A DNA stretch of 32,000 nt from Candidatus Saccharimonadota bacterium (GCA_001790095.1 MGBH01000001.1:360001-392000); one strand, 5' to 3'. Shown: positions 10,824-25,532, counted from the first letter of the stretch. Notes: generated by a model not told the origin, from the sequence alone. Numbers and translations are program-made.

Positions 10824-11366
10824 ATGCATGAGGACATTGAAGCCATATATGAACAGATAAAAAAAGAAGAGAATTTTATCACAAAGGCAAAGCTTCTTCG
10901 TTTCCTAGTCGTTGACAAAGAGATAAGAATAAAAGACATAAGTAAAAAAATAGGAATAAAGGAATCATATATTTGTCATATTCTTAGGCTTAATAAGTTG
11001 ACTGACATGATTGTAGATGGATATTATTCAAAGCTTATTTCAATAAGTCATCTATTTATCATATCCCGATTAAAGACAAATGAAGACATCTCAAAAGCAT
11101 ATGAGAAAGTGTTATCAGATAGCTTGACTGTTGGCCAAACGGAGGAACTTATTCGAGAAACACTTTATCAGACAAAAACAGTAGGGGAGCATCTCTCAAA
11201 GGATGAGGTTGATAAATCAAGGCAAGATATCAAACTTCTATTTGACGGTGTTGATTTAAAAATAGTTCAAACACGGATAAAAAGCCGATGTATATTAGAT
11301 ATGAAAGGAAGTTTAGCTGAGACAACACCCCTGATCAGACAGATACTAAAAAAGTTAATCTCTTAA
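10824..11366 (+). CDS. ParB/Spo0J-like HTH domain protein lacking the N-terminal ParB/Srx box
   Basis: KDISKKIGIKESYICHILRLNKLTDMIVDGYYSKLISISHLFIISRL...LTVGQTEELI resembles the ParB central HTH plus the sVR.tE.L segment. I saw no GERRxRA-type box. An extended -10 (TGATAAAAT, 10809-10817) lies 6 nt before the ATG. Confidence 0.5.
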   Translation: MHEDIEAIYEQIKKEENFITKAKLLRFLVVDKEIRIKDISKKIGIKESYICHILRLNKLTDMIVDGYYSKLISISHLFIISRLKTNEDISKAYEKVLSDSLTVGQTEELIRETLYQTKTVGEHLSKDEVDKSRQDIKLLFDGVDLKIVQTRIKSRCILDMKGSLAETTPLIRQILKKLIS

Positions 11367-11930
11367 ATTGGTTGGAAATGGATTATTGATGGGTCCGACC
11401 TTGTTTGATGGAAAGTAGCGATAGAATACCAAACCAATCACGCTTGAGGCGGAAATAGGTCCAAACTCCCTTGAATCAGACGATCGCGGACGATTGTCTC
11501 CCATGACAAAAAGTTCTTCTTCAGGCACGATGATTTCCTCTCCGTTTTTTGAAAAGCCTCCCTCCCACAGATTTGTTTTGGCTGAGATGTAGTTCTCAGT
11601 CAATTGAATGTCATTAACATATACTTCTGAGTCCTTAATCATTATTTTATCCCCAGGAAGCCCAACAATACGTTTGATATACTCGATATCAGGGTTTTTA
11701 GGTGATTTGAATACCACCACATCTCCTCTTTCATAAGCACGGAATTTACTTGATATTTTACTTGTGAATATGTAGTCTCCAGAGTTGAAGGTTGGATCCA
11801 TAGATGCACCTTTTACCTGGTTTGGTTGCATTACAAATAAATAAACCACTATGAAAAGGGAGCCAATAAAAACAACCGTTTCAAGTATATCCATCACAAA
11901 CTCAAAGAAGCCTTTAAGTATTTTCAGCAT
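11355..11930 (-). CDS. lepB: Signal peptidase I, bacterial type (S26A, LepB)
   Basis: It has an N-terminal TM helix. Motifs seen: GASMDPTF (catalytic Ser box), YIKRIVGLPGD (catalytic Lys box), GDNRPRSSDSREFG. The 3' end overlaps the convergent ParB-like gene by 12 nt. Confidence 0.9.
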   Translation of the reverse strand: MLKILKGFFEFVMDILETVVFIGSLFIVVYLFVMQPNQVKGASMDPTFNSGDYIFTSKISSKFRAYERGDVVVFKSPKNPDIEYIKRIVGLPGDKIMIKDSEVYVNDIQLTENYISAKTNLWEGGFSKNGEEIIVPEEELFVMGDNRPRSSDSREFGPISASSVIGLVFYRYFPSNKVGPINNPFPTNLRD

Positions 11931-13426: not shown

Positions 13427-13976
13427 CAACGAAACAAGACGTATCGATGAGCTTTGTATTTTACTACAGAATCATATTGTTACCGAGATAACCCCAATGC
13501 ATATTTCAGATAACGATGTTGCAAAAAACGATCTTATTATCCTTACGGGTAGCCATAAGGTTTCCCTTATTGGGCACGAGGCTTATTTTAACAAGGAGAT
13601 TGAACTTATTAAGTCCTGTTCCAAACCTATAATTGGTATTTGTTTGGGGTTGCAGCTCATTGCTTATGCCTATGAGGGTTTTGTAGGTCGAATGCCGGCA
13701 AAACATGATGGAATAAAAAATATCCAAGTAGTGGGGTCTGATCCCATATTTGGTGAAAAAAGCTCATTTAAAGTATATTCAAGTCATCGATGGATGGTAG
13801 AACGGATAGATTTTCCTTTAATTGGTTTAGCACGAAGTGAGGATGGATGGGAGATAGTAAAACACTCAAACAAAAACATATATGGTTTTCAATTTCATCC
13901 AGAAGTACAACAAAAAAACATATTAGATGGCAAATGGCTTTTTGAAAGGATAGTTCAGACAGTTTGTCCTTCTTGA
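13407..13976 (+). CDS. Class I glutamine amidotransferase-like protein (GATase1 / peptidase C26 fold)
   Basis: Nucleophile elbow IGICLGLQLIA (Cys) and FQFHPE (His-Glu) in a 189-aa protein. It overlaps folC by 20 nt. The specific partner or activity cannot be told from sequence. Confidence 0.75.
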   Translation: MNILVINNETRRIDELCILLQNHIVTEITPMHISDNDVAKNDLIILTGSHKVSLIGHEAYFNKEIELIKSCSKPIIGICLGLQLIAYAYEGFVGRMPAKHDGIKNIQVVGSDPIFGEKSSFKVYSSHRWMVERIDFPLIGLARSEDGWEIVKHSNKNIYGFQFHPEVQQKNILDGKWLFERIVQTVCPS

Positions 13977-15202
13977 TTCTTCAATAGCAGTCTTCTTATT
14001 AAAGTAATACTTACTATTATCATAAGATCTAAAACGATAAAGTACCTACAGAAAAACGATGAAGTGTTGGCAAACACAAAGAAGCTGTAGGTAAAGCACT
14101 TATTTATAAGGCGAAATACTAAAAATGTTGCAATAACCCCCGCAAGGCCCATAAGATTATGTTTACGGTTGTTTATATTCTTTGCAACAAGGAAGTAATA
14201 AAGAGAAGCTAGTATTCCCTCCACAAGCAGTATCTGCCACCATAGACAGTTACATGTTTCAATTCCCTTTACTTCACCGATCTGTTCCCTTGTTTCAGGG
14301 GGAGAAAGAGTTGGGGCGGGCGTACTTGTGATGGTGGTTTCACCAGCGACTTCACCCGCCGGCACTGCCGGTCCTCCAAAGAAAGTAGTGAAGAGACCTA
14401 AAACTCCGCCTGAGGGTGCAGACGATGAGCTTTGTGCAGAAGATGATGAGGCTGAGCTTTGTTGTTGACAGTCTGCATAGCGTATCGTGACAGTCTGTGA
14501 AGGGTATCCGTTGTCTGGCTCAGCTTTTACTTCATCGTCTGTTGAGTAGCTGTATCCCGCGACAGCCTTTCCGTCACTTCCTGTATTTACTTCTTGGACT
14601 GATCCTTTATAAGTAAACTTGACTTTTACTCCAGACTGGACAACCCCATTGTCTTTTAACTCCATAATAGCGTCAAAATTGGAGTTAGTACATGATGTGT
14701 AAAGAGAAGAGGTTTTACCGATGGGTTGATCGAGAAATCCTATGGAAAGGTCAAACTTGGTTGAGGTATTTTGATACTCATTTCCAGCATCAAGATCCAT
14801 AGATACAGTAAATGCAAAGGTTTCAGATGACCCATTTCCCAGACTTGTCAAAAGCTCTGTTTCACCGTTTGCATAAAATGAACTTAAAAGTCCAGACCAG
14901 GCTTGTGAACTGTCAGATCTGGTTATAGTAAGATGCATTACATGGTCAAGATTACCGTTGGTTACCTCATTTGATGAATCTGCTCCAACTTTTTGACTGG
15001 TACCGCTTGCATTTGTGATCTGAACCGTTTTTGTCATGGTTTTACCCGGATACCATACTTCTGATGAAGGGAAAAAATTCGTAATAATGGATGGAGTACA
15101 GTCAGAGCTTGTACAGGTTACATTTTCATCAGCCGCAAAAGCTGATTGGGTAACGATCAATAAACCAAACGTCATTAACAGTATCAAAAATATTTTTTTC
15201 AT
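13955..15202 (-). CDS. Secreted protein with an N-terminal TasA/camelysin-like beta-sandwich, a Cna-B-like domain, a Ser-rich linker and a C-terminal 3-4 TM membrane domain (candidate fibre anchor)
   Basis: Domain evidence along the protein:
- Classical signal peptide MKKIFLILLMTFGLLIVTQSAFA|A.
- ...PGKTMTKTVQITNASG...MDLDAGNEYQNTSTKFDLSIGF resembles the PGD...N.G... and gN.YQg...f.f.F.a.Q blocks of TasA/CalY.
- Linker SSASSSSAQSSSSAPSGG.
- Hydrophobic C-terminus (WWQILLVEGILASLYYFLVA, LMGLAGVIATFLVF, YFIVLDLMIIVSITLI).
The start overlaps the upstream stop as ATGA. The ORF is well supported; the function is tentative. Confidence 0.6.
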   Translation of the reverse strand: MKKIFLILLMTFGLLIVTQSAFAADENVTCTSSDCTPSIITNFFPSSEVWYPGKTMTKTVQITNASGTSQKVGADSSNEVTNGNLDHVMHLTITRSDSSQAWSGLLSSFYANGETELLTSLGNGSSETFAFTVSMDLDAGNEYQNTSTKFDLSIGFLDQPIGKTSSLYTSCTNSNFDAIMELKDNGVVQSGVKVKFTYKGSVQEVNTGSDGKAVAGYSYSTDDEVKAEPDNGYPSQTVTIRYADCQQQSSASSSSAQSSSSAPSGGVLGLFTTFFGGPAVPAGEVAGETTITSTPAPTLSPPETREQIGEVKGIETCNCLWWQILLVEGILASLYYFLVAKNINNRKHNLMGLAGVIATFLVFRLINKCFTYSFFVFANTSSFFCRYFIVLDLMIIVSITLIRRLLLKNQEGQTV

Positions 15203-18200
15203 GGTTTAGTCTCCAATAGTATTTCTTTGCCTTCTTTATCTGTCAGCACAACTGTTAATGTCAAATTCTCTGTATCTGTAAGTTTAGTGCACACACCTCC
15301 TGAGCATGTTTCAAGGATAATGCCTTTTGCTTCATACTTGTCCTGGCCAGATAATACTTCCTCCGACGAGGAATTATCCGCAATGATTTTTTTGGTCAAA
15401 CTATTTTCAAGCTTATAGGTTAATTCAGAATAGGCGGTAATGTTTTCCACTATAAATCCTATTGAGTCTTTGGTCTCTGAAAAAATGAGTATTACTTTTG
15501 GATTTTTATCAAGTGCAACTGTTGGCGCAAGAGTTAAAGTAGGGGTGGGTGGTATAGTTTGTTTAAGTTTACGATTATACGGCTCATTTTCCGATCGGTT
15601 TTCAACTCTTGGAGTGCCTCTTATATCTGATCCTGTAACCCCGACGGTAAAAAAGTCTGTATAGGATTGAGCATCAATACATGAGTACCAATTTAAAGGA
15701 TCCGTACCGTCTCCAGGTATTGAGGTACGCTCCATAGAGTAATATTTGAGATTGACAGCATCATATAATCCCTCACCTTCACCATCTGAAAGATTGTACG
15801 TGTAGTCCCAAGCTGAATCAAGCACGTTGTCTAAAGAATCAGTGAGTTGTAGTTGTAGGTGTCCTGCAGCCAAATCAACAGAAGTAGTTACAAGATCGGC
15901 TGTGACTAAAGGTCTCAGCTGACTATCTGAAGAGCCGGGTGTATAGTTTGCTATGAGATAATATCCACGAGCTTCAATGAAAGAAGATGGTAAAGTAATC
16001 ATATCTACATATGTTGATCCATTATATTTTTGAATCTTAAACCCAGTGAGATCAATCGTTCGATCTGTCATATTGCGAAGCTCAATCCATTCATCAGCAG
16101 AGGATACGCTTGAACCCATCCACATAAGCTCATTTATTATAAGATCGCCCGGTGAAACAGTTGTGGCTGGAGAGAGAGGTGTGGTTGTGCTGCTTGTTGT
16201 ATAGATGTCTGACCAATTTGGTGCTTCATCTGCAGCCTTTATTGCAAAATAATAAGTAGTAGAAGGATTGAGGCCCAAGATTTCAATTGTTTCTTCTAGT
16301 CCGGACTCATTAGGTACTGGGCTTTTGCCAGAGGATGTGGCCGTCTCAAAGTTGTCAAGATCAATGGGGGAAGTAGAATATCGTATATCATATTTTGCAG
16401 CCTTTCCTGACGCCCCGTCGTTGCCTGGTGCAGTCCATGATAATGTCGCTGAGTTTGCACCGATTTCATCCACCTGAAGATCTGTTATCTGGGATGGCGC
16501 TTGAGTGTCGGTTATGATCTGAACTCTATAGATCAAGCTCTCATTTCCTGCATTATCAACTGCCTTGTATTCAACCCAATGATCGCCGTGTTCTGTTACC
16601 TGAAATGTTGAGGGAGTTTGTTGCCATGATCCACCTCCAATGCGGTATTCGTAATGGTTTATGCCTGAAGAGGAGTCTGTACCTGATAAAGTATAGATAG
16701 CGTGACCTGGAGCTGATACAAAATAAGTGGTTATCGCATCTACGTAACCCCACGATTGACGGGTGTCATCATAACTGTTGCCTGCATAAATAGCTAGATT
16801 GATGTTTTCGCTATCAGAATAATTACTTAAATCATAGTAGAATTGTTGCCAACCGCTTGATGTTGCGATACCCACATCCGTATCATCAAGTACAGATGGA
16901 TCTAATTTAAATACCTCCTGACCATTTAACCGTATGAAGAAGCCCGGATCATCAAATGGAGCAAAATCATAAGACGCATAGTTATAGTGAAGGGATAAAC
17001 TTTTTGCCCCTCCGGATATCGACTGCATAAGGCGGTTTTCCCAAACTTTATTACCTTGATCGGTCGGATAGGTATAGTTGCCAATCTTTGCCATAGACAA
17101 ACCCTCATATGGATTGATTACCAGATCTGGTTCGGGAGACAATTGAGGAATGGTATCACTAGCTATGACATCTACATCTCCTGCAGTTGTCCAACCGTTC
17201 AATCCGTCTTCTAACCCACCATTAACAACTTTTTCCTCAACAGCCTTGGTATAGGATCCGGTTATCGAAAGAGAGACAGGAGATGGAGCAACACTATCGT
17301 AGACGATTGAACACTCAGAGGACCAGACAGAAATATTATTTGTTTTGTCATATGCTCTTACTTTATAGGTATGGACTCCTTGTCCTGCGTTGAAGACGCC
17401 TGTGTATTGTGAAGAGATGACAAAGGTACTCCATGTACCAATCGTCCCGTCTAGCTTGGGATAGGTGATAAAGTACTCGTATTTCTCTATTTGCCCAGGG
17501 AAAGGATCTATTACATTATCCCAGTCAGCAATTATGCTATAACTATTTGTTGCTCCGCCACAGGAGATGATAGTACCGTCTGCTTTTTTCCATAGCAGGT
17601 TGGTCGGCGCAGGGGGAGCGGTGTTGTCTACTATCACTTTCCAAGCAGGAGTCCAGTCGCTACAGTTATCCAATGTGTCGCAAGCCTTTACATGCCACCA
17701 ATATTCACCGTCCGGCGTGCCTGGAGCTGGTATTTGGGATGCGGAAAGATGGCCTGAAGTATATGCTAAGGGTGAAAATCCCGGATTTCTTGCACTTTGA
17801 TATATATAATAAACAGGGTTATGCATATCTTCATAATCAGTTACATCCGACCAATCCATAACCAATCCAGACGTATTTCTATATGAATTATTAGTAGGAG
17901 ACAAAAGAGTGGGTACGGGCGGAGGTACAAAATCTTTAACTGAAAATGTAACCCCCGACGCAGTAGAAGAGGATACAAAAAGAGCTCTCGATATCTCACT
18001 TACTCCATATATAACCAAGCCGTTTAATATAAAAGCAAGCAATATGACATTTTTTAGCAATGCTTTCCCTTTTTTATTCTTTGTTTTTTCAAGAACTTGA
18101 TTTGTACGTCTTTCTACTTCCTCATCAATACCCAGTTTTATTGTTTTTATCTGAAGAACAGCTAAAATCAAAGCAGGAAAAATCACAATTGCCGCAAACC

Positions 18201-18714
18201 CCTTTGGTGTTTTGATCAATGCCCCTATATGACCGAGATAGGGGACTGAAAAGAGAAACTGTCCTTTTATCATGGTTTGTGAGATGGTCCAGCTGTCGGG
18301 TGAGTTGTTATTATCTCCTTTTGTCATAAAGGTCTTTTCCTTCCCCGATTTGTTAACAGCGATGATTCTATGAAGTACGGTAAGTTTTGAGTCTTTAGGA
18401 GAAGTAAATGTTATTATGTCGCCTTTTTTGAGCTTGGTTGTCTCTGCGGGTTTTACAAATGCAACAGATCCTGCATGGATAGCCGATTCCATAGAGCCTG
18501 TGGCTACAATATATGTATATATATACTTCTTTGTGGGTAGAAGGGGTGAGAGGACTATGAGAAATGTAGCGATCAGCACGGCAAATATAGCCCACTCAAA
18601 TACTATGCCCACCGTCTTGAGTATCTTCCATACCTTTGCCGTATTGTTTTTTTCTACTTCTTTCTTAGCCATATAAATACTTATCTGACAGTAGGAAGCG
18701 GCGTCCCGCCTCAT
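15199..18714 (-). CDS. Fusion ORF: archaeal/ER-type signal peptidase I (SipW-like, S26B) joined to an internal SipW-class signal peptide and a ~920-aa multidomain passenger (FN3-like x3-4, CBM-like jelly roll, lamin-tail domain)
   Basis: SipW part (about aa 15-190, 18145-18672):
- TM helix, then ATGSMESAI (Ser box), VLHRII (His box), TKGDNNNSPD, then a second TM helix.
Junction (aa 213-256, 17947-18078):
- KKGKALLKNVILLAFILNGLVIYGVSEISRALFVSSSTASGVTF.
Passenger:
- Domain boundaries DNTAPPAP, DSVAPSP, DTQAPSQ.
- VVNGGLEDGLNGWT (CBM-like).
- LSWTAPGNDG...YDIRYS...YYFAIKAADEAPNWS (FN3).
- LIINELMWMG...DEWIELRNMTDRTIDLTGFKI (LTD).
The likely real start is ATG 18672 (MAKKEV). Confidence 0.8.
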   Translation of the reverse strand: MRRDAASYCQISIYMAKKEVEKNNTAKVWKILKTVGIVFEWAIFAVLIATFLIVLSPLLPTKKYIYTYIVATGSMESAIHAGSVAFVKPAETTKLKKGDIITFTSPKDSKLTVLHRIIAVNKSGKEKTFMTKGDNNNSPDSWTISQTMIKGQFLFSVPYLGHIGALIKTPKGFAAIVIFPALILAVLQIKTIKLGIDEEVERRTNQVLEKTKNKKGKALLKNVILLAFILNGLVIYGVSEISRALFVSSSTASGVTFSVKDFVPPPVPTLLSPTNNSYRNTSGLVMDWSDVTDYEDMHNPVYYIYQSARNPGFSPLAYTSGHLSASQIPAPGTPDGEYWWHVKACDTLDNCSDWTPAWKVIVDNTAPPAPTNLLWKKADGTIISCGGATNSYSIIADWDNVIDPFPGQIEKYEYFITYPKLDGTIGTWSTFVISSQYTGVFNAGQGVHTYKVRAYDKTNNISVWSSECSIVYDSVAPSPVSLSITGSYTKAVEEKVVNGGLEDGLNGWTTAGDVDVIASDTIPQLSPEPDLVINPYEGLSMAKIGNYTYPTDQGNKVWENRLMQSISGGAKSLSLHYNYASYDFAPFDDPGFFIRLNGQEVFKLDPSVLDDTDVGIATSSGWQQFYYDLSNYSDSENINLAIYAGNSYDDTRQSWGYVDAITTYFVSAPGHAIYTLSGTDSSSGINHYEYRIGGGSWQQTPSTFQVTEHGDHWVEYKAVDNAGNESLIYRVQIITDTQAPSQITDLQVDEIGANSATLSWTAPGNDGASGKAAKYDIRYSTSPIDLDNFETATSSGKSPVPNESGLEETIEILGLNPSTTYYFAIKAADEAPNWSDIYTTSSTTTPLSPATTVSPGDLIINELMWMGSSVSSADEWIELRNMTDRTIDLTGFKIQKYNGSTYVDMITLPSSFIEARGYYLIANYTPGSSDSQLRPLVTADLVTTSVDLAAGHLQLQLTDSLDNVLDSAWDYTYNLSDGEGEGLYDAVNLKYYSMERTSIPGDGTDPLNWYSCIDAQSYTDFFTVGVTGSDIRGTPRVENRSENEPYNRKLKQTIPPTPTLTLAPTVALDKNPKVILIFSETKDSIGFIVENITAYSELTYKLENSLTKKIIADNSSSEEVLSGQDKYEAKGIILETCSGGVCTKLTDTENLTLTVVLTDKEGKEILLETKP
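17947..18078 (-). other. Internal SipW-class signal peptide within the 1171-aa ORF
   Basis: It has a K-rich n-region, the h-region VILLAFILNGLVIYGV, then SEISRA|LFVSSSTASGVTF. This aligns with the N-terminus of the TasA-like protein (GGTAYA|LFSSSVTASGVTF). The DNA of the two segments is not similar, so conservation is at the protein level. Confidence 0.65.
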
Positions 18715-18738: not shown

Positions 18739-19299
18739 TTATGGCGCAACTTGAGTACCTGTGATCAACCAAGTTGTGGCAGTTGTTTTATTTGCTATGC
18801 TATTTCCTGCATCACTTGGAACCTGGACATAGATTCTCATCAATTTTTGCTCACTTTGAGCAAGTGTAATGGTGATATCTCTTTCTAAGGAATTCCAGTC
18901 TGCTAAGGTGTAGTATCCGCTACCAACAGCGCCTGCATCATCACCGATCCAAGCAGTGATAACTGGTGATAAGACACCCCAGTCACCGGTTGCTGCAGTT
19001 AGTCTTGCGCTTAAGCGAAGACTAATAGGCGATGTACTTGTGTTTCTTAAATAGAATTCGTTGTAACCGTTATATCCTGGATATAGATTCTGAAATGTGG
19101 TTGGAAAAGTTACATTTTGAGTCCATGTTGAAGCTGGTACGACGCCTGGTCCATTTGACCAAAACTCTAAGTTGGCATTACCAGTTGCAAACGTCACTCC
19201 GCTTGCCGTGACACTGCTTGAGAACAACGCATACGCTGTTCCACCGACAACAGCTGTTAACATAACCAATCCTAAGAATCCTGCTATTATTTTATTCAT
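18739..19299 (-). CDS. TasA/camelysin-like (Peptidase_M73 family-like) secreted protein with a SipW-class signal peptide; candidate major fibre subunit
   Basis: MNKIIAGFLGLVMLTAVVGGTAYALFSSSVTASGVTFATG parallels B. subtilis TasA ...LVGGGTWAAFND...ATFASGTLDL. The C-terminal block DAGNSIANKTTATTWLITGTQ parallels the TasA/CalY ...N.YQG....f.f.f.atQ end. It has the only strong SD in the window (AAAGGAGGTGA, 7 nt before the ATG). Confidence 0.7.
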   Translation of the reverse strand: MNKIIAGFLGLVMLTAVVGGTAYALFSSSVTASGVTFATGNANLEFWSNGPGVVPASTWTQNVTFPTTFQNLYPGYNGYNEFYLRNTSTSPISLRLSARLTAATGDWGVLSPVITAWIGDDAGAVGSGYYTLADWNSLERDITITLAQSEQKLMRIYVQVPSDAGNSIANKTTATTWLITGTQVAP

Positions 19300-19512: not shown

Positions 19513-20202
19513 TTATTTAGTGAGCTGCGCATCGACGATAAGCCGCTTAAATGTAGTACCTGGGGGCCAGCAAGTCATAAGACTTATTGTTTTTTTTGTT
19601 TTATCTTGTTTTAAATATTTAAGTTCACTTGGCTCAACGATCTTACTGCCTGTTACTTTATATTTGAATTTATCTCCTTTATAAAATAGATAAATATCGT
19701 CGTTTGTTTTAAGCTTAGTTAAAAGATAAAAAATAGCATTATATCTGTTTGCTTGATGCCAATTTGCAGCAGAATGCGCAAAGATAAAGGTATTGCCGTA
19801 TTCTCCAGGATATGCCGTGTCACGAGCATGCGCCACTCCTTTGGTAAGTTGTAACTGATACTCTTTTTCATTAAACGGGCTTACGTTGGCAATAACGGGT
19901 GAATTGGCACCTATCTTAGGTATCACTAATCCGTATTGTTCATCAACCGGTTCGATCACCTTATTACTTGTTATCAAGGTTGGCTTTTCTTCATTTTTTG
20001 AGAGGACAAGAAAATTGTTCACTCCTGGTTTTAAATAGAAAGATATTTCTTGAAACAAGACAGGATAATATATAAGAGTAAGAAGGACTAATCCGGCGGA
20101 AATAAATGCAAATCCACCGACCATCAACAAACGATGTATGTGATTTGGCTTAAAGCCATTCTTTTTTACTTTTTTCCGAATTTCTTTTTTTGTTTTTGAC
20201 AT
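19513..20202 (-). CDS. Sortase-family cysteine transpeptidase
   Basis: It has a basic N-terminus and one TM helix. Motifs seen: LVIPKIG, GNTFIFAHS (catalytic His), ISLMTCWPPGT (TLxTC-type catalytic Cys), KRLIVDAQL (Arg). Starting at 20202 overlaps the upstream ORF tail by 53 nt in an A-rich, Lys-coding stretch. Alternative start at ATG 20124. Confidence 0.85.
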   Translation of the reverse strand: MSKTKKEIRKKVKKNGFKPNHIHRLLMVGGFAFISAGLVLLTLIYYPVLFQEISFYLKPGVNNFLVLSKNEEKPTLITSNKVIEPVDEQYGLVIPKIGANSPVIANVSPFNEKEYQLQLTKGVAHARDTAYPGEYGNTFIFAHSAANWHQANRYNAIFYLLTKLKTNDDIYLFYKGDKFKYKVTGSKIVEPSELKYLKQDKTKKTISLMTCWPPGTTFKRLIVDAQLTK

Positions 20203-23200
20203 AATAAATAGCTCCTAAAATCAATGCTACTAAACCAAGTATGCTAAGTATAATCACCTTACGGTTAGCGACCCAGTTTAATGCATTAGAAAATACGTCT
20301 TTGTCCTTCTGAGTTTTCTCACCTAAGACACTTTCATTATTGTTAGATGTGTTTGCTCCGCTTGTTTCTTCTTGATTTACCTCTTCGGCACCTTGTACCT
20401 CTCCTTCAGTCTCACCTGCTGCAAGGGTGACATTGGTGACAGGAATTGCTCCGCCACCACCTGTGGTTGTCCCTGTACTTGTGCCGGGATTTGAGACAGT
20501 GGTTGTGGTGCCAGTGGTTGTAGTTGTGGTGGTTGTCACCGTGACACTATCTCCCACAAGACCTGAGCCATTGTCAGCACTATCAAAAGCTCTTAATACA
20601 TAGAAATAGGTTTTGTTACAGTCTCCGACAATATCATTATAGCTCCCATTTTGATTGGAACCAATAGATATTGTGGTACGTCTAGATCCTGAATCTGCTG
20701 TAAAGGAGGTATTTTCAGAACGATATACCTCTACTCTGGTTGTTTTGCCACCATCGTCTGCAGTGCGAAACATGATCTTGTATTCACAGGATGACACTTT
20801 TTCTTTTGCATAATTTGTCGGCGTACCTGGTCCGCTTGTATTATAGTCAACAGTTATGGTTTCACTCGTTGCAAAATCATCACTTGTTGTGGCTGTTGCA
20901 TAAAATTGAAAGGTACCATTTTCACTAATCATGCTTGATTCAAGAGGACATAATCCGCTGTTTCCGCCAGCTGTAACAGATATGTCACCACCTATTTGGT
21001 TATAAGCAGAGCTTGGCTTTTTCATGTAGCATCTTACGGTGACAGGTAAACCCTTAAGGTCCAATGTGACATAACCGAGATTAAAATCATTGATGCGGGA
21101 TGGGCTTTTTGGTTGTACAAGCCTCACGTGTAGATTAGTTACGGCTTGAACCCCACCGGAAACAGTTAAAAACAAAGCTGTTGCTATAACAAAAGCAGAA
21201 ATCCTCAAGGCAAATGTTTTTTTCTGGAATAAAGCTGAGATGAACATAGACAGTCCGATAAGTATCATGAGTCCTGATAGCATTACCCATATGCTTGGTG
21301 TGCCAGTTCCTGGCAGACCAGTTGAAGCACCAAGTACATCACCATTCTCAGTTACCTCTTTTTTTTCTTCTTTTCTCACATCTACACCAGAGGAATCTTG
21401 CTGGGTTTGATTTATACTTACTTTTGTACCTACAAATGTGTCAATTCCTGTAAACGTACCTGGGTCGACGGTGCCTGAATCTACGGCTTGAGCAAGCAGG
21501 GCGTCAGAGCTTTCAATGGTGCATTCGGTACTTGTTGTACACCCAACAGCCCATGCAAGATCTTTATAGAGTCCTGGTTTTTGACTACCATCAATTACGG
21601 CGGTATACACAAGTTCGATAATGTCCCCAGCATCTGTATCTCCAATCTGCCATTCACCAGGGGAATGATATTGAGGTTCTGGAATAGCAAACTCAACTCC
21701 ATTTTTATATGTTTTCCAGCTTCCAGCCTTATAGGTAAATCCGGAAGGTGGAAGATCAGTTACCACAACGTCCTTGACTCCGTAGTCTAATATCTTCAAA
21801 GTAAGTTTGTATACGACTTCATTACCAGGAGTTGTATCATTTGGCCACGTTGTATTGAATTTGGACAAAGTCATGTATGGTTCAATATGTCTGTTGCCGA
21901 TATAGCAATGGACTACTTCTCCCACATTAACAGTAACACTGTGAAGATTGTCATTGTCTTCATGTGATTCATCACCATCACAATACATGGTGGTTTGAGT
22001 CCATCCTGGTTGAGATTCAAGGTCTTCACTAAAATCATAGACACCCTCTGGTAGTTCAAAACTCACCTCACCGGATTCGGTAGTGGTCTTTATTACTTCG
22101 TTAAGAATTATATTCCAGCCTGATAAATAAGTATCAACATCCTGATCTATATATGAGTCGCCGTCAACATCTTCAAATTTGGTTACTATAACCTGTCCAG
22201 TTGTCGGGGTGACTGTTGGACCAACTTTAAAGTTATCAGTTTTTGAACAATCACTTGGGAAATCTGGGCTTGAGCTTACCCAAACCTTATATTCACCGCC
22301 TGGATTTGAAGTATCTGCAAAAGCTGTCAATTCAAAGAGGTTATAGCATTGTTCGAAACTACCATCAACCACTGTGATTGAAGGTGTGTTGCTTTGACCA
22401 AGCAAAGTGCCGTCTGGCTCAGTCACTTTTACATAATACTGCCCGTCAGGTAGACCCGATCCGTTACCGTTTGGCCCACCGTTCAAATAAACATCTGTCT
22501 TTAATGCGTAATTCACATTTTCATTTACCACTTCACAATACCTATCGGTTGTCCATACAGCTCCATTTAAGTGTTCACAGGATGGAGCGGATGAAGAGGA
22601 AGAAGAGGATGAACTCGAGGATGAACTCGTGGATGAACTTGAAGATGAGCTGCTAGAGGAGGAAGACGAAGATGAACTAGAACTACTTGAAGAAGAAGAC
22701 GAAGAGGTTGATGAACTACTTGAACTACTTGATGAAGAACTTGATGAAACAGAGGTTGGTGTTGGTGTTACTCCATTGATTGAATATACACAGTCTGAAG
22801 GATCCGAATTTGGCTCACCTGATGGATAAGAACAAACATCAAGAAGTGTAGCGTTTGTACCACCACCGATGTCAGCCATCTGTACTGTGCATGTTGCAAC
22901 AGCATCATCCGGGTAATGATCTCCTTCTGGGTCAAATGGATCATCTGGCAACACGCTTACAGAACAAGAAGAAGTATTTGTGATTTCAGTAGCTTGCATA
23001 CATCTGTCGACCCTATCATTCCTACATGAGTAAAGAACCAATGAATCAAATTCTGCAGGGGTGTTTGTAACTGACACACATAAAGAATAGTTTGCAAAAC
23101 CATCACCGTCTGTATCAAAGAGACTACATCCGTCTCCAGTATTTGCTCCTGTCCATCCTATTTCATCCCACTGCATTTTCATTTCAAAATAAACATCCAT

Positions 23201-24280
23201 TTCAGAATTATCAAAACACATACGAGTCATGTCTTTTTGACCTGGTTCATCATTGGGCCCTTCAGAATCTGCATAACATACCCAGTTTGCATCTGTGAAT
23301 GTTGTTGTAGCAACGAGTACGCCTAACTGGTCTTTTACCTCAACCTTATAGTTTGGTCTGTATATCCCGTCAAGCTGATAGGTATATGTGAATGTGCCAA
23401 ATGCGTCAGTTGTGGTTGATCCTACCGTATATACGGCTGGTGCATCGTCAGATGAAACCACTATGGTGTAGGTATAGCCAGGGGTAAAATTCTCACCCGT
23501 GATAACTGCTTTTTCAGTCGGAGCATAGTCACTCTTGTCTGTCCAAACTGATGGATCAACATATGCTTGATTATTGCTTTCAATTATTGTTATCTGTATT
23601 GTTTCATCGCCGGTTTCTAAATTAGCGCCCTGTGTGGGTGCAACAGTGACAGTAGGAGAAATCTGTGTTGATATGCCATCAAGTATTTCACCTTTTTCAA
23701 CTACTGTAGGAGTGGGCTGCAGTGCTGGGGTAGAAGTAATGGTTGGAGAAACTTCAAGATCCTTGCCATTTTCAATCCAATATTTTTCATCGTCTGTCAT
23801 CTCAGTTACAGAGCCGACCGTATCTTCTTTCTCGATTCTTATCTCACCATTTTCCAAAAGAAATCTTTGTATTCTAAACCAGTTCTGATTTGCTAAATTG
23901 ACTTTCAAAATACCTCTTGGAACAGTATGATTTATGCATGTTCCATGCGTTGAGCAGGTTTTTGCTTCCAGTTCCTTTATAAAATTTTCAATCCCAAGTT
24001 CAGTTTCACCTTGAACCGCCTCAATCTGATTAGTTGAGTTAGGAGAATCATTTTTGTAAAGAAGCGAATACGTAATTTTTCCTGAAGTAATGCTGTTTTC
24101 TTTTGTGTTTATCTCAAACTTAAACGCTCCTTTTTGACTTTCATATCCAAGTTTTACCGATAAAGGCTCAGATGAAAAAACGTACTGCGGTACGATATAG
24201 AGGTAGGGAGTAAGTGTGTTAAAAAGAAGAGATAAGATTGTTAAAAAGCCAAAAGCCTTGCGAAGAATTTTTTGTCTCAT
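20150..24280 (-). CDS. Giant surface protein with an internal LPGTG sortase signal (aa 989-993), followed by a second ectodomain and a C-terminal TM anchor
   Basis: Order along the protein:
- N-terminal signal-like helix.
- Ig/Big-like modules.
- A Cys- and Asp-rich region (DTDGDGF).
- A ~55-aa Ser tract.
- A Cna-B/SdrD-B-like module (VIVTKFEDVDGDSYID...GW...).
- A DUF11-like repeat (VTDLPPSGFTY).
- LPGTG, a 25-aa hydrophobic stretch and QKK.
- TFALRISAFVIATALFLTVSGGVQA.
- Two FN3-like modules.
- A Thr-rich linker.
- TM helix VIILSILGLVALILGAIYYV followed by KNKKRNSEKSKKEWL. Confidence 0.85.
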   Translation of the reverse strand: MRQKILRKAFGFLTILSLLFNTLTPYLYIVPQYVFSSEPLSVKLGYESQKGAFKFEINTKENSITSGKITYSLLYKNDSPNSTNQIEAVQGETELGIENFIKELEAKTCSTHGTCINHTVPRGILKVNLANQNWFRIQRFLLENGEIRIEKEDTVGSVTEMTDDEKYWIENGKDLEVSPTITSTPALQPTPTVVEKGEILDGISTQISPTVTVAPTQGANLETGDETIQITIIESNNQAYVDPSVWTDKSDYAPTEKAVITGENFTPGYTYTIVVSSDDAPAVYTVGSTTTDAFGTFTYTYQLDGIYRPNYKVEVKDQLGVLVATTTFTDANWVCYADSEGPNDEPGQKDMTRMCFDNSEMDVYFEMKMQWDEIGWTGANTGDGCSLFDTDGDGFANYSLCVSVTNTPAEFDSLVLYSCRNDRVDRCMQATEITNTSSCSVSVLPDDPFDPEGDHYPDDAVATCTVQMADIGGGTNATLLDVCSYPSGEPNSDPSDCVYSINGVTPTPTSVSSSSSSSSSSSSSTSSSSSSSSSSSSSSSSSSSSSSSSSTSSSSSSSSSSSSSAPSCEHLNGAVWTTDRYCEVVNENVNYALKTDVYLNGGPNGNGSGLPDGQYYVKVTEPDGTLLGQSNTPSITVVDGSFEQCYNLFELTAFADTSNPGGEYKVWVSSSPDFPSDCSKTDNFKVGPTVTPTTGQVIVTKFEDVDGDSYIDQDVDTYLSGWNIILNEVIKTTTESGEVSFELPEGVYDFSEDLESQPGWTQTTMYCDGDESHEDNDNLHSVTVNVGEVVHCYIGNRHIEPYMTLSKFNTTWPNDTTPGNEVVYKLTLKILDYGVKDVVVTDLPPSGFTYKAGSWKTYKNGVEFAIPEPQYHSPGEWQIGDTDAGDIIELVYTAVIDGSQKPGLYKDLAWAVGCTTSTECTIESSDALLAQAVDSGTVDPGTFTGIDTFVGTKVSINQTQQDSSGVDVRKEEKKEVTENGDVLGASTGLPGTGTPSIWVMLSGLMILIGLSMFISALFQKKTFALRISAFVIATALFLTVSGGVQAVTNLHVRLVQPKSPSRINDFNLGYVTLDLKGLPVTVRCYMKKPSSAYNQIGGDISVTAGGNSGLCPLESSMISENGTFQFYATATTSDDFATSETITVDYNTSGPGTPTNYAKEKVSSCEYKIMFRTADDGGKTTRVEVYRSENTSFTADSGSRRTTISIGSNQNGSYNDIVGDCNKTYFYVLRAFDSADNGSGLVGDSVTVTTTTTTTTGTTTTVSNPGTSTGTTTGGGGAIPVTNVTLAAGETEGEVQGAEEVNQEETSGANTSNNNESVLGEKTQKDKDVFSNALNWVANRKVIILSILGLVALILGAIYYVKNKKRNSEKSKKEWL
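21218..21316 (-). other. Complete cell-wall sorting signal (LPGTG, hydrophobic helix, QKK) at an internal position
   Basis: LPGTG is encoded at 21316-21302. TPSIWVMLSGLMILIGLSMFISALF and QKK follow, down to 21218. The ORF continues in frame with no stop. Confidence 0.8.
22589..22753 (-). repeat. Ser-tract coding region (aa 510-564; about 55 residues, nearly all Ser, interrupted by V and T)
   Basis: SVSSSSSSSSSSSSSTSSSS...SSSS then APSC. It uses mixed TCN and AGY codons rather than a pure trinucleotide repeat. The antisense frame gives a spurious E/D/L-rich ORF (22629-22829). Confidence 0.9.
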
Positions 24281-24502: not shown

Positions 24503-24982
24503 TTATGGATGATCGGGGTGAATAGGATGCTCAGGATGTTCAGGGTGAATAGGATGCTCAGGATGATCTTTTGATACTTCAGCAGAAGAGGATGAGGATG
24601 AAGATGTTGAAGAAGAGGAGTTGCTAGATATAGAGGTGGTAGGTTGCAAAGAACTATCCGAACCGGCTGATGTCTTAAGAGGGGTTGGAGTAATTTTTTG
24701 CGTAGTTTTTGTCTCTTCTTGTATTTTCTGGGATGAATCTGCTTTTGGCAACTTTGTAGCTATTATGCTTGTAGCTACTATTCCTGCAGTAACAACAGTT
24801 AGCAGCCGTTTGTTTGCGATTTTTTTAACTTTATTTAATATTCCTTTTGTCTGAGGTGGGAGTGGAAGATTATGCGCACAATGATGAAGAAGTGTGTTTT
24901 TTAGCGCCTGCCTTTGATTGTGGCCAAGGACAAAGCCTCCCTTTAGAGAGCTCAAATTGTGTATTAATTTTTTATCTTCCAT
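24503..24982 (-). CDS. Single-pass membrane protein translationally coupled to the ECF sigma (putative anti-sigma factor) with a Ser-rich linker and a C-terminal (HPx)7 tail
   Basis: The start overlaps the sigma stop by 11 nt. The TM helix is LLTVVTAGIVATSIIA. The extracytoplasmic part is SISSNSSSSTSSSSSSSAEVSK then DHPEHPIHPEHPEHPIHPDHP. I did not recognise a canonical zf-HC2 motif, so the anti-sigma call rests on context. Confidence 0.45.
   Translation of the reverse strand: MEDKKLIHNLSSLKGGFVLGHNQRQALKNTLLHHCAHNLPLPPQTKGILNKVKKIANKRLLTVVTAGIVATSIIATKLPKADSSQKIQEETKTTQKITPTPLKTSAGSDSSLQPTTSISSNSSSSTSSSSSSSAEVSKDHPEHPIHPEHPEHPIHPDHP
24516..24569 (-). repeat. 27-bp tandem duplication (2 copies) encoding the HPEHPIHPE/HPEHPIHPD repeat
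   Basis: On the plus strand, gggtgaataggatgctcaggatg is repeated at 24516-24542 and 24543-24569. The first 22 nt are identical and the last 5 differ. Confidence 0.85.
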
Positions 24983-25532
24983 TGTTTAGTATTTGTTTTA
25001 ACTTAGCGATTGCTCTATGTTGGGTCACTCTGACTGACTCTGGTGATTTATCGATAATAACTGCCACTTCCTGCACTGGCAAATCCTCAATAAAACGCAA
25101 AATGACGATTTCCTTATAATCTTGAGGAAGCTGCGCGATCGCCTCATGAAGCTTTTGACATTCATCATCTTTGGTCACCTTATCTAAAATTTCAGATTTA
25201 CCGTCATGTTTATCAAATTTTTCAAAAGTATCGATATTAGTTATATTCGTTTTTTTCTTATCATCAAAATAATCGTAAATCAAATTTCGTGCTATAGCGT
25301 ATAGAAAAGCCCGAAAATTGTCTTTTTTATATTTATATATATAACTCCAAGCTTTCTTAAAAGTTTCACTTACGATATCTTCTGAATCGGGTACAGAATG
25401 TAGTTGGATCATGCAGTAGCGAAAGATTTCATCGGATAAAAGCTCAAAGAGTTTTCCATACGAATCAATATCGCCTTTTTGGCCCAGTTTTACCAAGTTC
25501 TCAATATCCATCTTTGTATAAGACCTCGGCAT
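24972..25532 (-). CDS. ECF-type RNA polymerase sigma-70 family factor
   Basis: 186 aa. Region 2-like segment: DIVSETFKKAWSYIYKYKKDNFRAFLYAIARNLIYDYF. Region 4 HTH: YKEIVILRFIEDLPVQEVAVIIDKSPESVRVTQHRAIAKLK. Confidence 0.85.
   Translation of the reverse strand: MPRSYTKMDIENLVKLGQKGDIDSYGKLFELLSDEIFRYCMIQLHSVPDSEDIVSETFKKAWSYIYKYKKDNFRAFLYAIARNLIYDYFDDKKKTNITNIDTFEKFDKHDGKSEILDKVTKDDECQKLHEAIAQLPQDYKEIVILRFIEDLPVQEVAVIIDKSPESVRVTQHRAIAKLKQILNNGR

Follow-up and report, generated by a model that had tools for sequence, protein, structure and literature searches.

A signal peptidase and the protein that is its putative substrate are encoded as one polypeptide in the 32,000-nucleotide stretch of Candidatus Saccharimonadota bacterium DNA analyzed here (GCA_001790095.1 MGBH01000001.1:360001-392000; the window, hereafter). 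At 15199..18714(-), a single uninterrupted open reading frame (ORF) of 1171 amino acids (aa) runs from a SipW-like peptidase through a lysine-rich linker and an internal signal-peptide-like segment into a multidomain passenger. This sipW-passenger gene fusion is probably a self-resolving enzyme-substrate precursor, in which the freed adhesin would give a TapA-like donor strand to P2, the TasA-like fiber subunit encoded next to it. The fusion would have arisen from two adjacent genes of an operon, one for a dedicated archaeal/endoplasmic reticulum (ER)-type signal peptidase and one for its multidomain surface-protein substrate. An enzyme made in one chain with its own substrate most likely cuts itself free, as judged from the sequence features described below. 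An initial annotation of this DNA had proposed such an enzyme-substrate polyprotein, and the proposal is supported here by the intact frame, the recognition of the peptidase by a family S26B hidden Markov model (HMM), the existence of split orthologs, and a conserved predicted cleavage site.

The in-frame junction is not an assembly accident, since the exact 1171-aa product is found on at least 24 contigs (32 index blocks; JGI, ENA, Logan, and NCBI assemblies), which were assembled independently, with different assemblers and from different samples. The single in-frame ORF of the initial annotation is thus borne out, and no stop codon or frameshift between peptidase and passenger was found either in the independent assemblies or in 96 fused homologs. 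In the NCBI annotation (GCA_001790195.1, Candidatus Roizmanbacteria RIFOXYC2_FULL_38_9), the gene starts at M15 and encodes 1157 aa. That genome, of an uncultured groundwater bacterium in the Microgenomates, also has an entry 100% identical to P2. Since the N-termini of fused homologs likewise lie near M15, the ORF probably starts there (18672), and residue numbers below are those of the 1171-aa frame, as in the initial annotation, rather than M15-based. Hydropathy peaks at aa 37-55, 174-192, and 223-241 and nowhere else in the 1171 aa. The third peak is preceded by a K-rich tract, KTKNKKGKALLK, just as first described, and the stretch at 17947-18078 in which the initial annotation had placed this segment is present, although it spans aa 213-256 (NKKGK...ASGVT) and is therefore shifted slightly relative to the string that was quoted.

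The N-terminal ~200 aa, which had been read as a complete archaeal/ER-type signal peptidase, are indeed recognized as such by the archaeal-type S26B model. TIGR02228 (sigpep_I_arch) scores 103.1 bits (cutoff 51.85) over aa 41-191, covering profile positions 9-157 of 158, against only 34 bits for the bacterial-type signal peptidase model on the fused ORF (cutoff 47). The catalytic motifs GSMES (18484-18498), LHR (18367-18375), and KGDNN (18307-18321) are in place and provide S74 (codon 18493-18495), H115, and D134/D140 (in KGDNN...D, 18307-18321). The catalytic pair is thus Ser and His, not Lys, plus conserved Asp residues, and S74, H115, D134, and D140, together with A244 at the predicted cleavage site, are invariant in 63 fused homologs. 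In an AlphaFold2 (AF2) model of aa 1-375, the mean predicted local distance difference test (pLDDT) score is 87.9 and exceeds 90 across the peptidase domain. The closest PDB matches of this SEC11-like fold are human SEC11C and SEC11A (7p2q_A and 7p2p_A, TM-score 0.62-0.63 on target), and it also matches 4n31, Streptococcus pyogenes SipA/LepA. Since the region ahead of the first transmembrane helix (TM1) has a net charge of +5, the N-terminus is expected to be cytoplasmic. Because a LepB-type signal peptidase is encoded by a separate gene in the window, the S26B enzyme is a second, dedicated peptidase, like SipW in Bacillus. It is a member of S26B working like SipW; by the NCBI threshold, it is not a SipW ortholog.

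Behind the second transmembrane helix (TM2), the junction reads KTKNKKGKALLKN-VILLAFILNGLVIYGV-SEISRA/LFVSSSTASGVTFSVKDF, where the slash marks the predicted cut (SRA244/LF), and cleavage between A244 and L245 would release a 927-aa passenger with an N-terminal peptide starting LFVSSSTASGVTFSVK. In the AF2 model, TM2 runs into a cytoplasmic helix (170-210); then come a disordered loop, a further helix (219-237), and a stretch without structure (239-262), ahead of a confidently modeled beta-sandwich at 265-365. The internal segment had been said to resemble the signal peptide of the neighboring protein, and this likeness is borne out. Residues 218-259 share 19/42 identities with the N-terminus of the adjacent P2 (E 3e-5 in a single comparison), and, at the family level, the alignment of the internal segments covers the P2 signal peptide plus 17 residues of the mature N-terminus (hhalign probability 96.3%, E 1.9e-9). 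The 15 residues that follow A244 are 73% identical to the mature N-terminus of P2.

We wondered how general this layout might be. A word-indexed search with aa 1-367 returned 29 close homologs of 343-642 aa, mostly from Candidatus Gottesmanbacteria, and 29/29 are fused. When 1.84 billion representatives were searched exhaustively with a profile, many further fused homologs, of up to 1243 aa, came to light; 96 fused sequences were aligned to an HMM of the peptidase-to-strand region. These 96 homologs (27-56% identity) hold the frame through a linker of varying length, and the predicted site is highly conserved among them: 1) position -1 is A in 93, S in 2, and G in 1; 2) position -3 is limited to A, I, V, T, S, L, M, or G; 3) position +2 is aromatic in 94% (F in 67, Y in 22, and W in 1); and 4) position +4 is D or S, after which comes the motif G(I/V)S(I/F)S..DF. 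Ahead of the site lie an apolar run (median 16 aa) and, after it, a polar c-region (median 6 aa), and the region upstream of the apolar run is net positive in 76%. The internal segment thus has the n-h-c anatomy and the -3/-1 rule of a cleaved signal peptide, and the SipW-type site first proposed for one protein extends, with its aromatic P2' residue, across the family. TasA is reported to be cut poorly by LepB, and to be a substrate of SipW, because of an aromatic P2' (PMC10269814). The fused layout is a family trait of the Candidate Phyla Radiation (CPR) Microgenomates, with ~100 relatives, and not a one-off. Fused forms were also present, among the matches listed, in Shapirobacteria (locus L013) and in Woesebacteria (L015, from the complete genome CP011214.1). 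The related-locus search was run with a 9-sequence alignment; the taxa it gave are a minimum, and several of the best related loci bear doubtful NCBI labels, e.g., "Gammaproteobacteria." Signal peptidases of ~381 aa from Firmicutes (P0064, P0077, P0081, etc.) were considered as further fusions and set aside because they have an N-terminal polytopic membrane domain followed by the S26 domain; they fit the "10-TM SPase I" described for AbpX loci.

Orthologs exist in a split state as well, at two loci whose gene order is that of fused loci, L004 from Woesebacteria and L056 from Shapirobacteria CG06. The initial annotation had asked for this comparison, and both states were found. L004 has, in order, a TasA-like gene (225 aa, ...TATSA/YFTANVTAS), a stand-alone sipW gene (223 aa, with the K-rich tail at its end), a passenger gene (429 aa), and, last, a P3-like gene. 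The passenger starts with a signal peptide of its own (...FLFSQA/YYTVSVTAHG), the same first domain as fused passengers, and a lamin tail domain (LTD), and its gene overlaps that of the peptidase by ATGA. In L056, a 194-aa peptidase gene and a 662-aa passenger gene overlap by 20 nt (L056:1080-1099) in different frames; the overlap sits in an A-rich lysine tract, and the N-terminus of the passenger is MKSKIVKFVLLILLLFLPQISA/TNSSFF.... In both loci, the segment is thus the N-terminal signal peptide of a separate passenger. Because split passengers carry it N-terminally, the third helix of the fused protein derives from an N-terminal signal peptide; the linker at aa 193-222 corresponds to the C-terminal tail of a stand-alone SipW plus the n-region of that signal peptide. 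Since the split genes overlap in another frame, a one-nucleotide change suffices to fuse or split them, and since Shapirobacteria and Woesebacteria show both states, fused and split forms occur within the same candidate phyla. The fused/split junction in the window (18049-18100) is likewise an A-rich tract of lysine codons, where a slip of +/-1 nt would toggle the two states.

The conserved segment might instead serve as a stable anchor in a permanent, uncleaved fusion, with the passenger tethered and its membrane-near strand anchoring a fiber where the subunits are processed. Such an arrangement would guarantee that enzyme and nucleator stay side by side, TapA has been described as an anchoring and assembly protein (PMC9674648), and in the AF2 model the third segment is a helix (aa 219-237) with its site not docked in the active site. 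A stable anchor, however, needs neither the small -1 residue found in 96/96 homologs nor a -3 position restricted to small or aliphatic residues; the short apolar run followed by a ~6-aa polar c-region is that of cleaved signal peptides, and the equivalent segment is an N-terminal signal peptide in the split orthologs. We therefore regard a permanent fusion as unlikely.

What the passenger might do was addressed by comparing it with P2. When the passenger is compared with the P2 profile, residues 1-15 of the mature protein align and nothing else does, so the comparison finds no acceptor jelly roll. The passenger strand is identical to that of P2 at 11/14 positions. Across loci, passenger strands share on average 7.2 identities in 14 with the P2 strand of their own locus and 4.2 with those of other loci (permutation p = 2e-5). 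Such cognate resemblance implies co-evolution or gene conversion and hence a shared partner, since independent divergence of paralogous segments would not yield it. On these sequence grounds, the passenger would belong to the class of TapA-like initiator or minor subunits, with a donor-strand-like N-terminus and no acceptor jelly roll. The remainder of the passenger is variable. A C-terminal domain of ~95 aa is common to about half of the fused passengers and to the split passenger of L056, and the shortest fused protein (P0020, 343 aa) has little beyond it. This domain has no Pfam match; it was considered as a TasA-like acceptor and rejected, as hhalign found no similarity and Pfam nothing. 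Domain 1 (PVYY.YQS...CD...NCS.W) recurs in ~7-38 tandem copies in giant surface proteins of ~1,100-7,000 aa in a representative library, which suggests that this domain is a CPR fibrillar-adhesin repeat without a Pfam model.

P2, whose N-terminus reads ...VVGGTAYA/LFSSSVTASGVTFATGN, is the presumed partner. In each of the 9 fused loci examined, the gene next upstream of the fused one is P2-like. A strong Shine-Dalgarno sequence (AAAGGAGGTG) precedes P2 in the window, where most genes have none, and together with homologs supports the 186-aa start at 19299; the NCBI annotation uses an internal Met (174 aa), which cuts the n-region of the signal peptide short. TIGR04088, the model of SipW-cognate signal peptides, scores 18.9 bits with a 63-aa fragment of P2 and 15.1 bits with the full protein (cutoff 19), and 24/29 P2 homologs match it (best E 1.9e-6); YA/xF is invariant in the family. 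The AF2 model of P2 (pLDDT 83.5, N-terminal 40 residues disordered) has the TasA fiber 8aur_A as its top PDB match in Foldseek (E 2.5e-6, probability 1.0), followed by AbpA of archaeal bundling pili (7ueg), cannulae, and chaperone-usher Fim pilins. The TasA model NF046066 gives weak matches in 9/29 P2 homologs (best E 0.0012), and the probable kinship of P2 to TasA rests on the predicted fold and these weak HMM matches. On the other side of the fused gene, P3 has an ordinary signal peptide (SAFA/ADENV), a jelly roll, a Ser-rich linker, and C-terminal Cys-containing transmembrane helices. It aligns to the P2 jelly roll (hhalign 96.7%, E 4e-10) and is without the donor-strand segment; downstream of the passenger gene, whether this is fused or split, P3 has been conserved in L001, L004, L011, L014, and L056. 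P3 is hence a putative membrane base of the fiber. With a strand only in the passenger, a strand and a groove in P2, and a groove and a membrane anchor in P3, the three proteins are complementary.

The passenger could also be cleaved as proposed and yet be unrelated to the TasA-like fiber, its N-terminal likeness to P2 reflecting nothing but the P'-side preference of the peptidase. Conservation does peak at +1 to +5, where it could reflect the specificity of the peptidase, a jelly-roll acceptor domain is missing from the passenger, and the domain set differs widely among homologs. The similarity to P2, on the other hand, extends over ~15-17 mature residues, including G(I/V)S(I/F)S..DF, and so exceeds a protease footprint; passenger strands covary with the cognate P2 strand, strands and jelly rolls are distributed in complementary fashion over passenger, P2, and P3, and TapA and AbpB offer precedents, all of which make a fiber-unrelated passenger improbable. 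That there are two genes in reality and no polyprotein, through an assembly or homopolymer error in the A-rich tract, an internal start, or frameshifting, is very improbable: L004 and L056 do show how a +/-1-nt change within an A-rich overlap turns the split state into the fused one or back, and a TTG with a weak purine-rich upstream motif is present at aa 219, but the exact ORF recurs across assemblers and samples, the frame is kept in 96 diverged homologs in spite of a variable linker, the linker holds no conserved start, and most genes of the window do without a Shine-Dalgarno sequence anyway.

Several results weigh against a self-resolving, SipW-like precursor that feeds a TasA-like fiber. 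The peptidase falls short of the cutoff of the Bacillus SipW equivalog NF046067 (98.3 vs. 190 bits, profile positions 7-187 of 189). In the fused ORF, the internal segment gives no match to TIGR04088 at E <= 10, and only 1/24 homologous internal segments match, so that the test suggested by the initial annotation turned out negative at this point; the profile-profile comparison with P2 N-termini was used in its place. In the AF2 model (aa 1-375), residues 239-248 are disordered (pLDDT <50) and not docked in the active site, which leaves cleavage in cis without structural support, though not contradicted. The TTG at aa 219, preceded by AAGGGAAAG, is a possible separate start of the passenger; aligned homologs share neither a Met nor any other start position in the linker, and, with the frame kept in all 96, we rejected an internal start there as the main route. 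P2 has no PF12389 match in Pfam, and its family profile finds chance matches only, and no TasA, among PDB sequences. Finally, P3 is absent downstream in locus L002.

Taking these points together with the evidence for a self-resolving precursor, we infer the following sequence of events. TM1 would insert N-in, with the catalytic domain outside, and TM2 would take the chain back to the cytoplasm. The K-rich linker would stay inside, and the third segment, the former signal peptide of the substrate, would re-initiate export, this time of the 927-aa passenger. An S26B active site, that of the same chain or of a neighboring molecule, would then cut after A244, leaving a three-helix peptidase in the membrane and a free passenger. 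The new N-terminus of the passenger (LFVSSSTASGVTF...) would mimic the P2 donor strand and insert into a P2 subunit, thereby nucleating or capping a donor-strand-exchange fiber, as is proposed for TapA in Bacillus subtilis, and its fibronectin type III (fn3), LTD, and barrel domains would form the adhesive end. P3, as a membrane TasA-like protein with no donor strand, would take the last free P2 strand and tether the fiber. In a stricter version, which we put forward tentatively and consider rather doubtful, the fusion would be an obligate self-processing module: each molecule would make one cut in cis, the severed signal peptide would be kept as a third helix that completes or activates the peptidase, and the strand would be handed to the first processed TasA-like subunit. 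If so, a signal peptidase would be the nucleation platform of a donor-strand fiber, a chaperone/usher-like role for S26, and the A-rich junction could give cells a means of adjusting how much of the enzyme is free and how much fused.

Table 1. Features of the fused gene and its neighbors in the window, listed from the N-terminus of the fused protein and then by gene (a slash marks a predicted cut)
Feature	Position	Strand	Basis
Fused ORF, 1171 aa, stop codon included	15199..18714	-	ORF call
Probable true start, M15 (product 1157 aa)	18670-18672	-	NCBI call and homolog N-termini
TM1, aa 37-55	18550..18606	-	Hydropathy
S26B signal peptidase I catalytic domain, aa 41-191	18142..18594	-	TIGR02228, conservation, AF2, Foldseek
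TM2, aa 174-192, predicted to return the chain to the cytoplasm	18139..18195	-	Hydropathy, AF2
Predicted cytoplasmic helical and K-rich linker, aa 193-222	18049..18138	-	HMM, hydropathy, AF2, split orthologs
Internal signal-peptide-like segment, aa 223-244: h-region VILLAFILNGLVIYGV, c-region SEISRA	17983..18048	-	hhalign, hydropathy, homologs
Predicted cleavage site, A244/L245	17980..17985	-	Ala at -1 in 93/96 fused homologs
Donor-strand-like passenger N-terminus, aa 245-263 (LFVSSSTASGVTFSVKDFV)	17926..17982	-	P2 alignment; unstructured in AF2 monomer
Passenger domain 1, fn3/PKD-like beta-sandwich, aa 265-365	17620..17922	-	AF2, Foldseek
OmpL47-type beta-barrel domain, aa 673-728	16531..16698	-	HMM
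Fibronectin type III domain, aa 741-831	16222..16494	-	Pfam
Lamin tail domain (LTD), aa 854-966	15817..16155	-	Pfam
Conserved C-terminal domain, aa ~1073-1171 (Y.LTY ... LGTCS...C)	15202..15498	-	Homolog alignment
P2, upstream, 186 aa, TasA-like donor-strand fiber subunit, SipW-class signal peptide GGTAYA/LFSSSVTASGVTF	18739..19299	-	HMM, AF2, Foldseek
P3, downstream, 415 aa; start overlaps fused stop (ATGA)	13955..15202	-	ORF call, hhalign
LepB-type (bacterial) signal peptidase I, separate gene	11355..11930	-	TIGR02227, 164 bits

P2 borders on further surface-protein genes (all coordinates on the minus strand). Between it and an LPGTG protein lies a sortase gene, 19513-20202(-), with a Pfam Sortase match of E 1.5e-24; class C/D models come nearest, below their cutoffs. 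L001 and L002 have no called sortase gene (Pfam PF04203). The LPGTG protein is a 1376-aa ORF, 20150-24280(-), with an internal LPGTG at aa 989-993 (21302-21316), a transmembrane helix at 999-1017, and QKK, after which come a signal-peptide-like segment at aa 1022-1047 (...TVSGGVQA/VTN), ~330 residues, and a C-terminal transmembrane helix at 1342-1360. By its sequence, this ORF looks like a second polyprotein-like fusion of the cluster, which would need both sortase and signal peptidase to be resolved. Its counterpart on contig L007 was called as two ORFs, with the break at another place. Immediately upstream of the surface cluster, at 24503-25532(-), are an ECF-type (extracytoplasmic function) sigma factor of 186 aa and an overlapping 159-aa ORF without family match, which could be a regulator pair for the cluster.

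Microgenomates need to attach to other cells, and hardly any of their surface structures have been characterized. The locus predicts a full TasA-type fiber in this group, with a strand-only tip, a shaft of subunits with strand and groove, and a groove-only membrane base. The fused gene is a natural "Rosetta stone," which links, for uncultured CPR bacteria, an S26B enzyme of dedicated function to a particular class of substrates. With active site, cleavage site, and product in one chain, the precursor lends itself to expression and makes cleavage in cis or in trans and P'-side specificity (the aromatic P2') directly amenable to study. Sister lineages with fused and split genes show how readily overlapping secretory genes can merge into polyproteins. 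Gene fusion as such is nothing out of the ordinary in evolution; a precursor that joins signal peptidase I to its substrate, however, is unusual, and this one is widespread in an uncultured lineage. A literature search, with many subscription papers outside its reach, turned up no account of a signal peptidase I fusion in which the substrate keeps its cleavage site and, in agreement with what had been noted from the sequence at the outset, none of a SipW with such a layout.

Among the closest known systems is the tapA-sipW-tasA operon of B. subtilis, which the locus resembles in that 1) the gene of a dedicated ER/archaeal-type signal peptidase adjoins that of a TasA-like donor-strand subunit, 2) the mature N-terminus of an accessory protein mimics the donor strand of the major subunit, and 3) the cleavage site has an aromatic P2' and the genome a separate LepB-type peptidase. 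The N-terminus of TapA is similar to the donor strand of TasA, and the prediction is that it complements TasA or supplies the first strand (PMC9674648), and archaeal AbpB, which has adhesin domains, is a proposed initiator giving the first donor strand (PMC9245690). Unlike in B. subtilis, peptidase and TapA-like accessory form one polypeptide here, with an internal signal peptide; the accessory is an adhesin-like protein of 927 aa and several domains, in which no sequence similarity to TapA was detected except for the donor-strand-like N-terminus; the peptidase lies below the SipW equivalog cutoff, the host belongs to CPR, and a strandless, membrane-anchored TasA-like P3 is added.

In the TasA-superfamily filament loci of archaea and bacteria more broadly (AbpA/AbpB, AbpX, and Tafi), the gene for the major subunit is accompanied by genes for a minor or tip component, for an anchor in the membrane or cell wall, and for a signal peptidase I dedicated to the system (bioRxiv 10.64898/2026.01.04.697558; PMC9245690), and in bacteria the anchor is often an LPXTG protein with a sortase nearby (bioRxiv 10.64898/2026.01.04.697558). 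The window, too, has an adjacent sortase and LPGTG protein. In the loci described in these papers, in contrast, the peptidase is separate, DUF5305-fused, or of the 10-TM type, and a substrate fusion with a retained site goes unmentioned. The DUF5305-SPase I (Anaerolinea thermophila E8MZY1) and the 10-TM SPase I are peptidases fused to accessory modules (bioRxiv 10.64898/2026.01.04.697558). Like these, the enzyme here is an S26 peptidase of a TasA-type locus extended by membrane spans and extracellular domains, but their partners are proposed non-substrate subunits, whereas here the signal-peptide-like segment, the AXA-type site, and the donor strand indicate that the fused partner is a substrate.

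S. pyogenes SipA/LepA, which our model matches in structure (4n31), is also a protein of signal-peptidase fold in a surface-fiber locus with a sortase. SipA has been described as a signal peptidase homologue for pilus polymerization, not as a processing peptidase, and serves sortase-polymerized pili; the enzyme here, unlike SipA, retains Ser, His, and Asp, and its locus is of the donor-strand (TasA) type. For the layout of the precursor itself, parallels are found in the glycoprotein precursors of flaviviruses and bunyaviruses, in which an internal hydrophobic segment re-initiates translocation and a signal peptidase cut separates the products. In these viral polyproteins, the peptidase is an enzyme of the host, whereas here it is the first module of the precursor.

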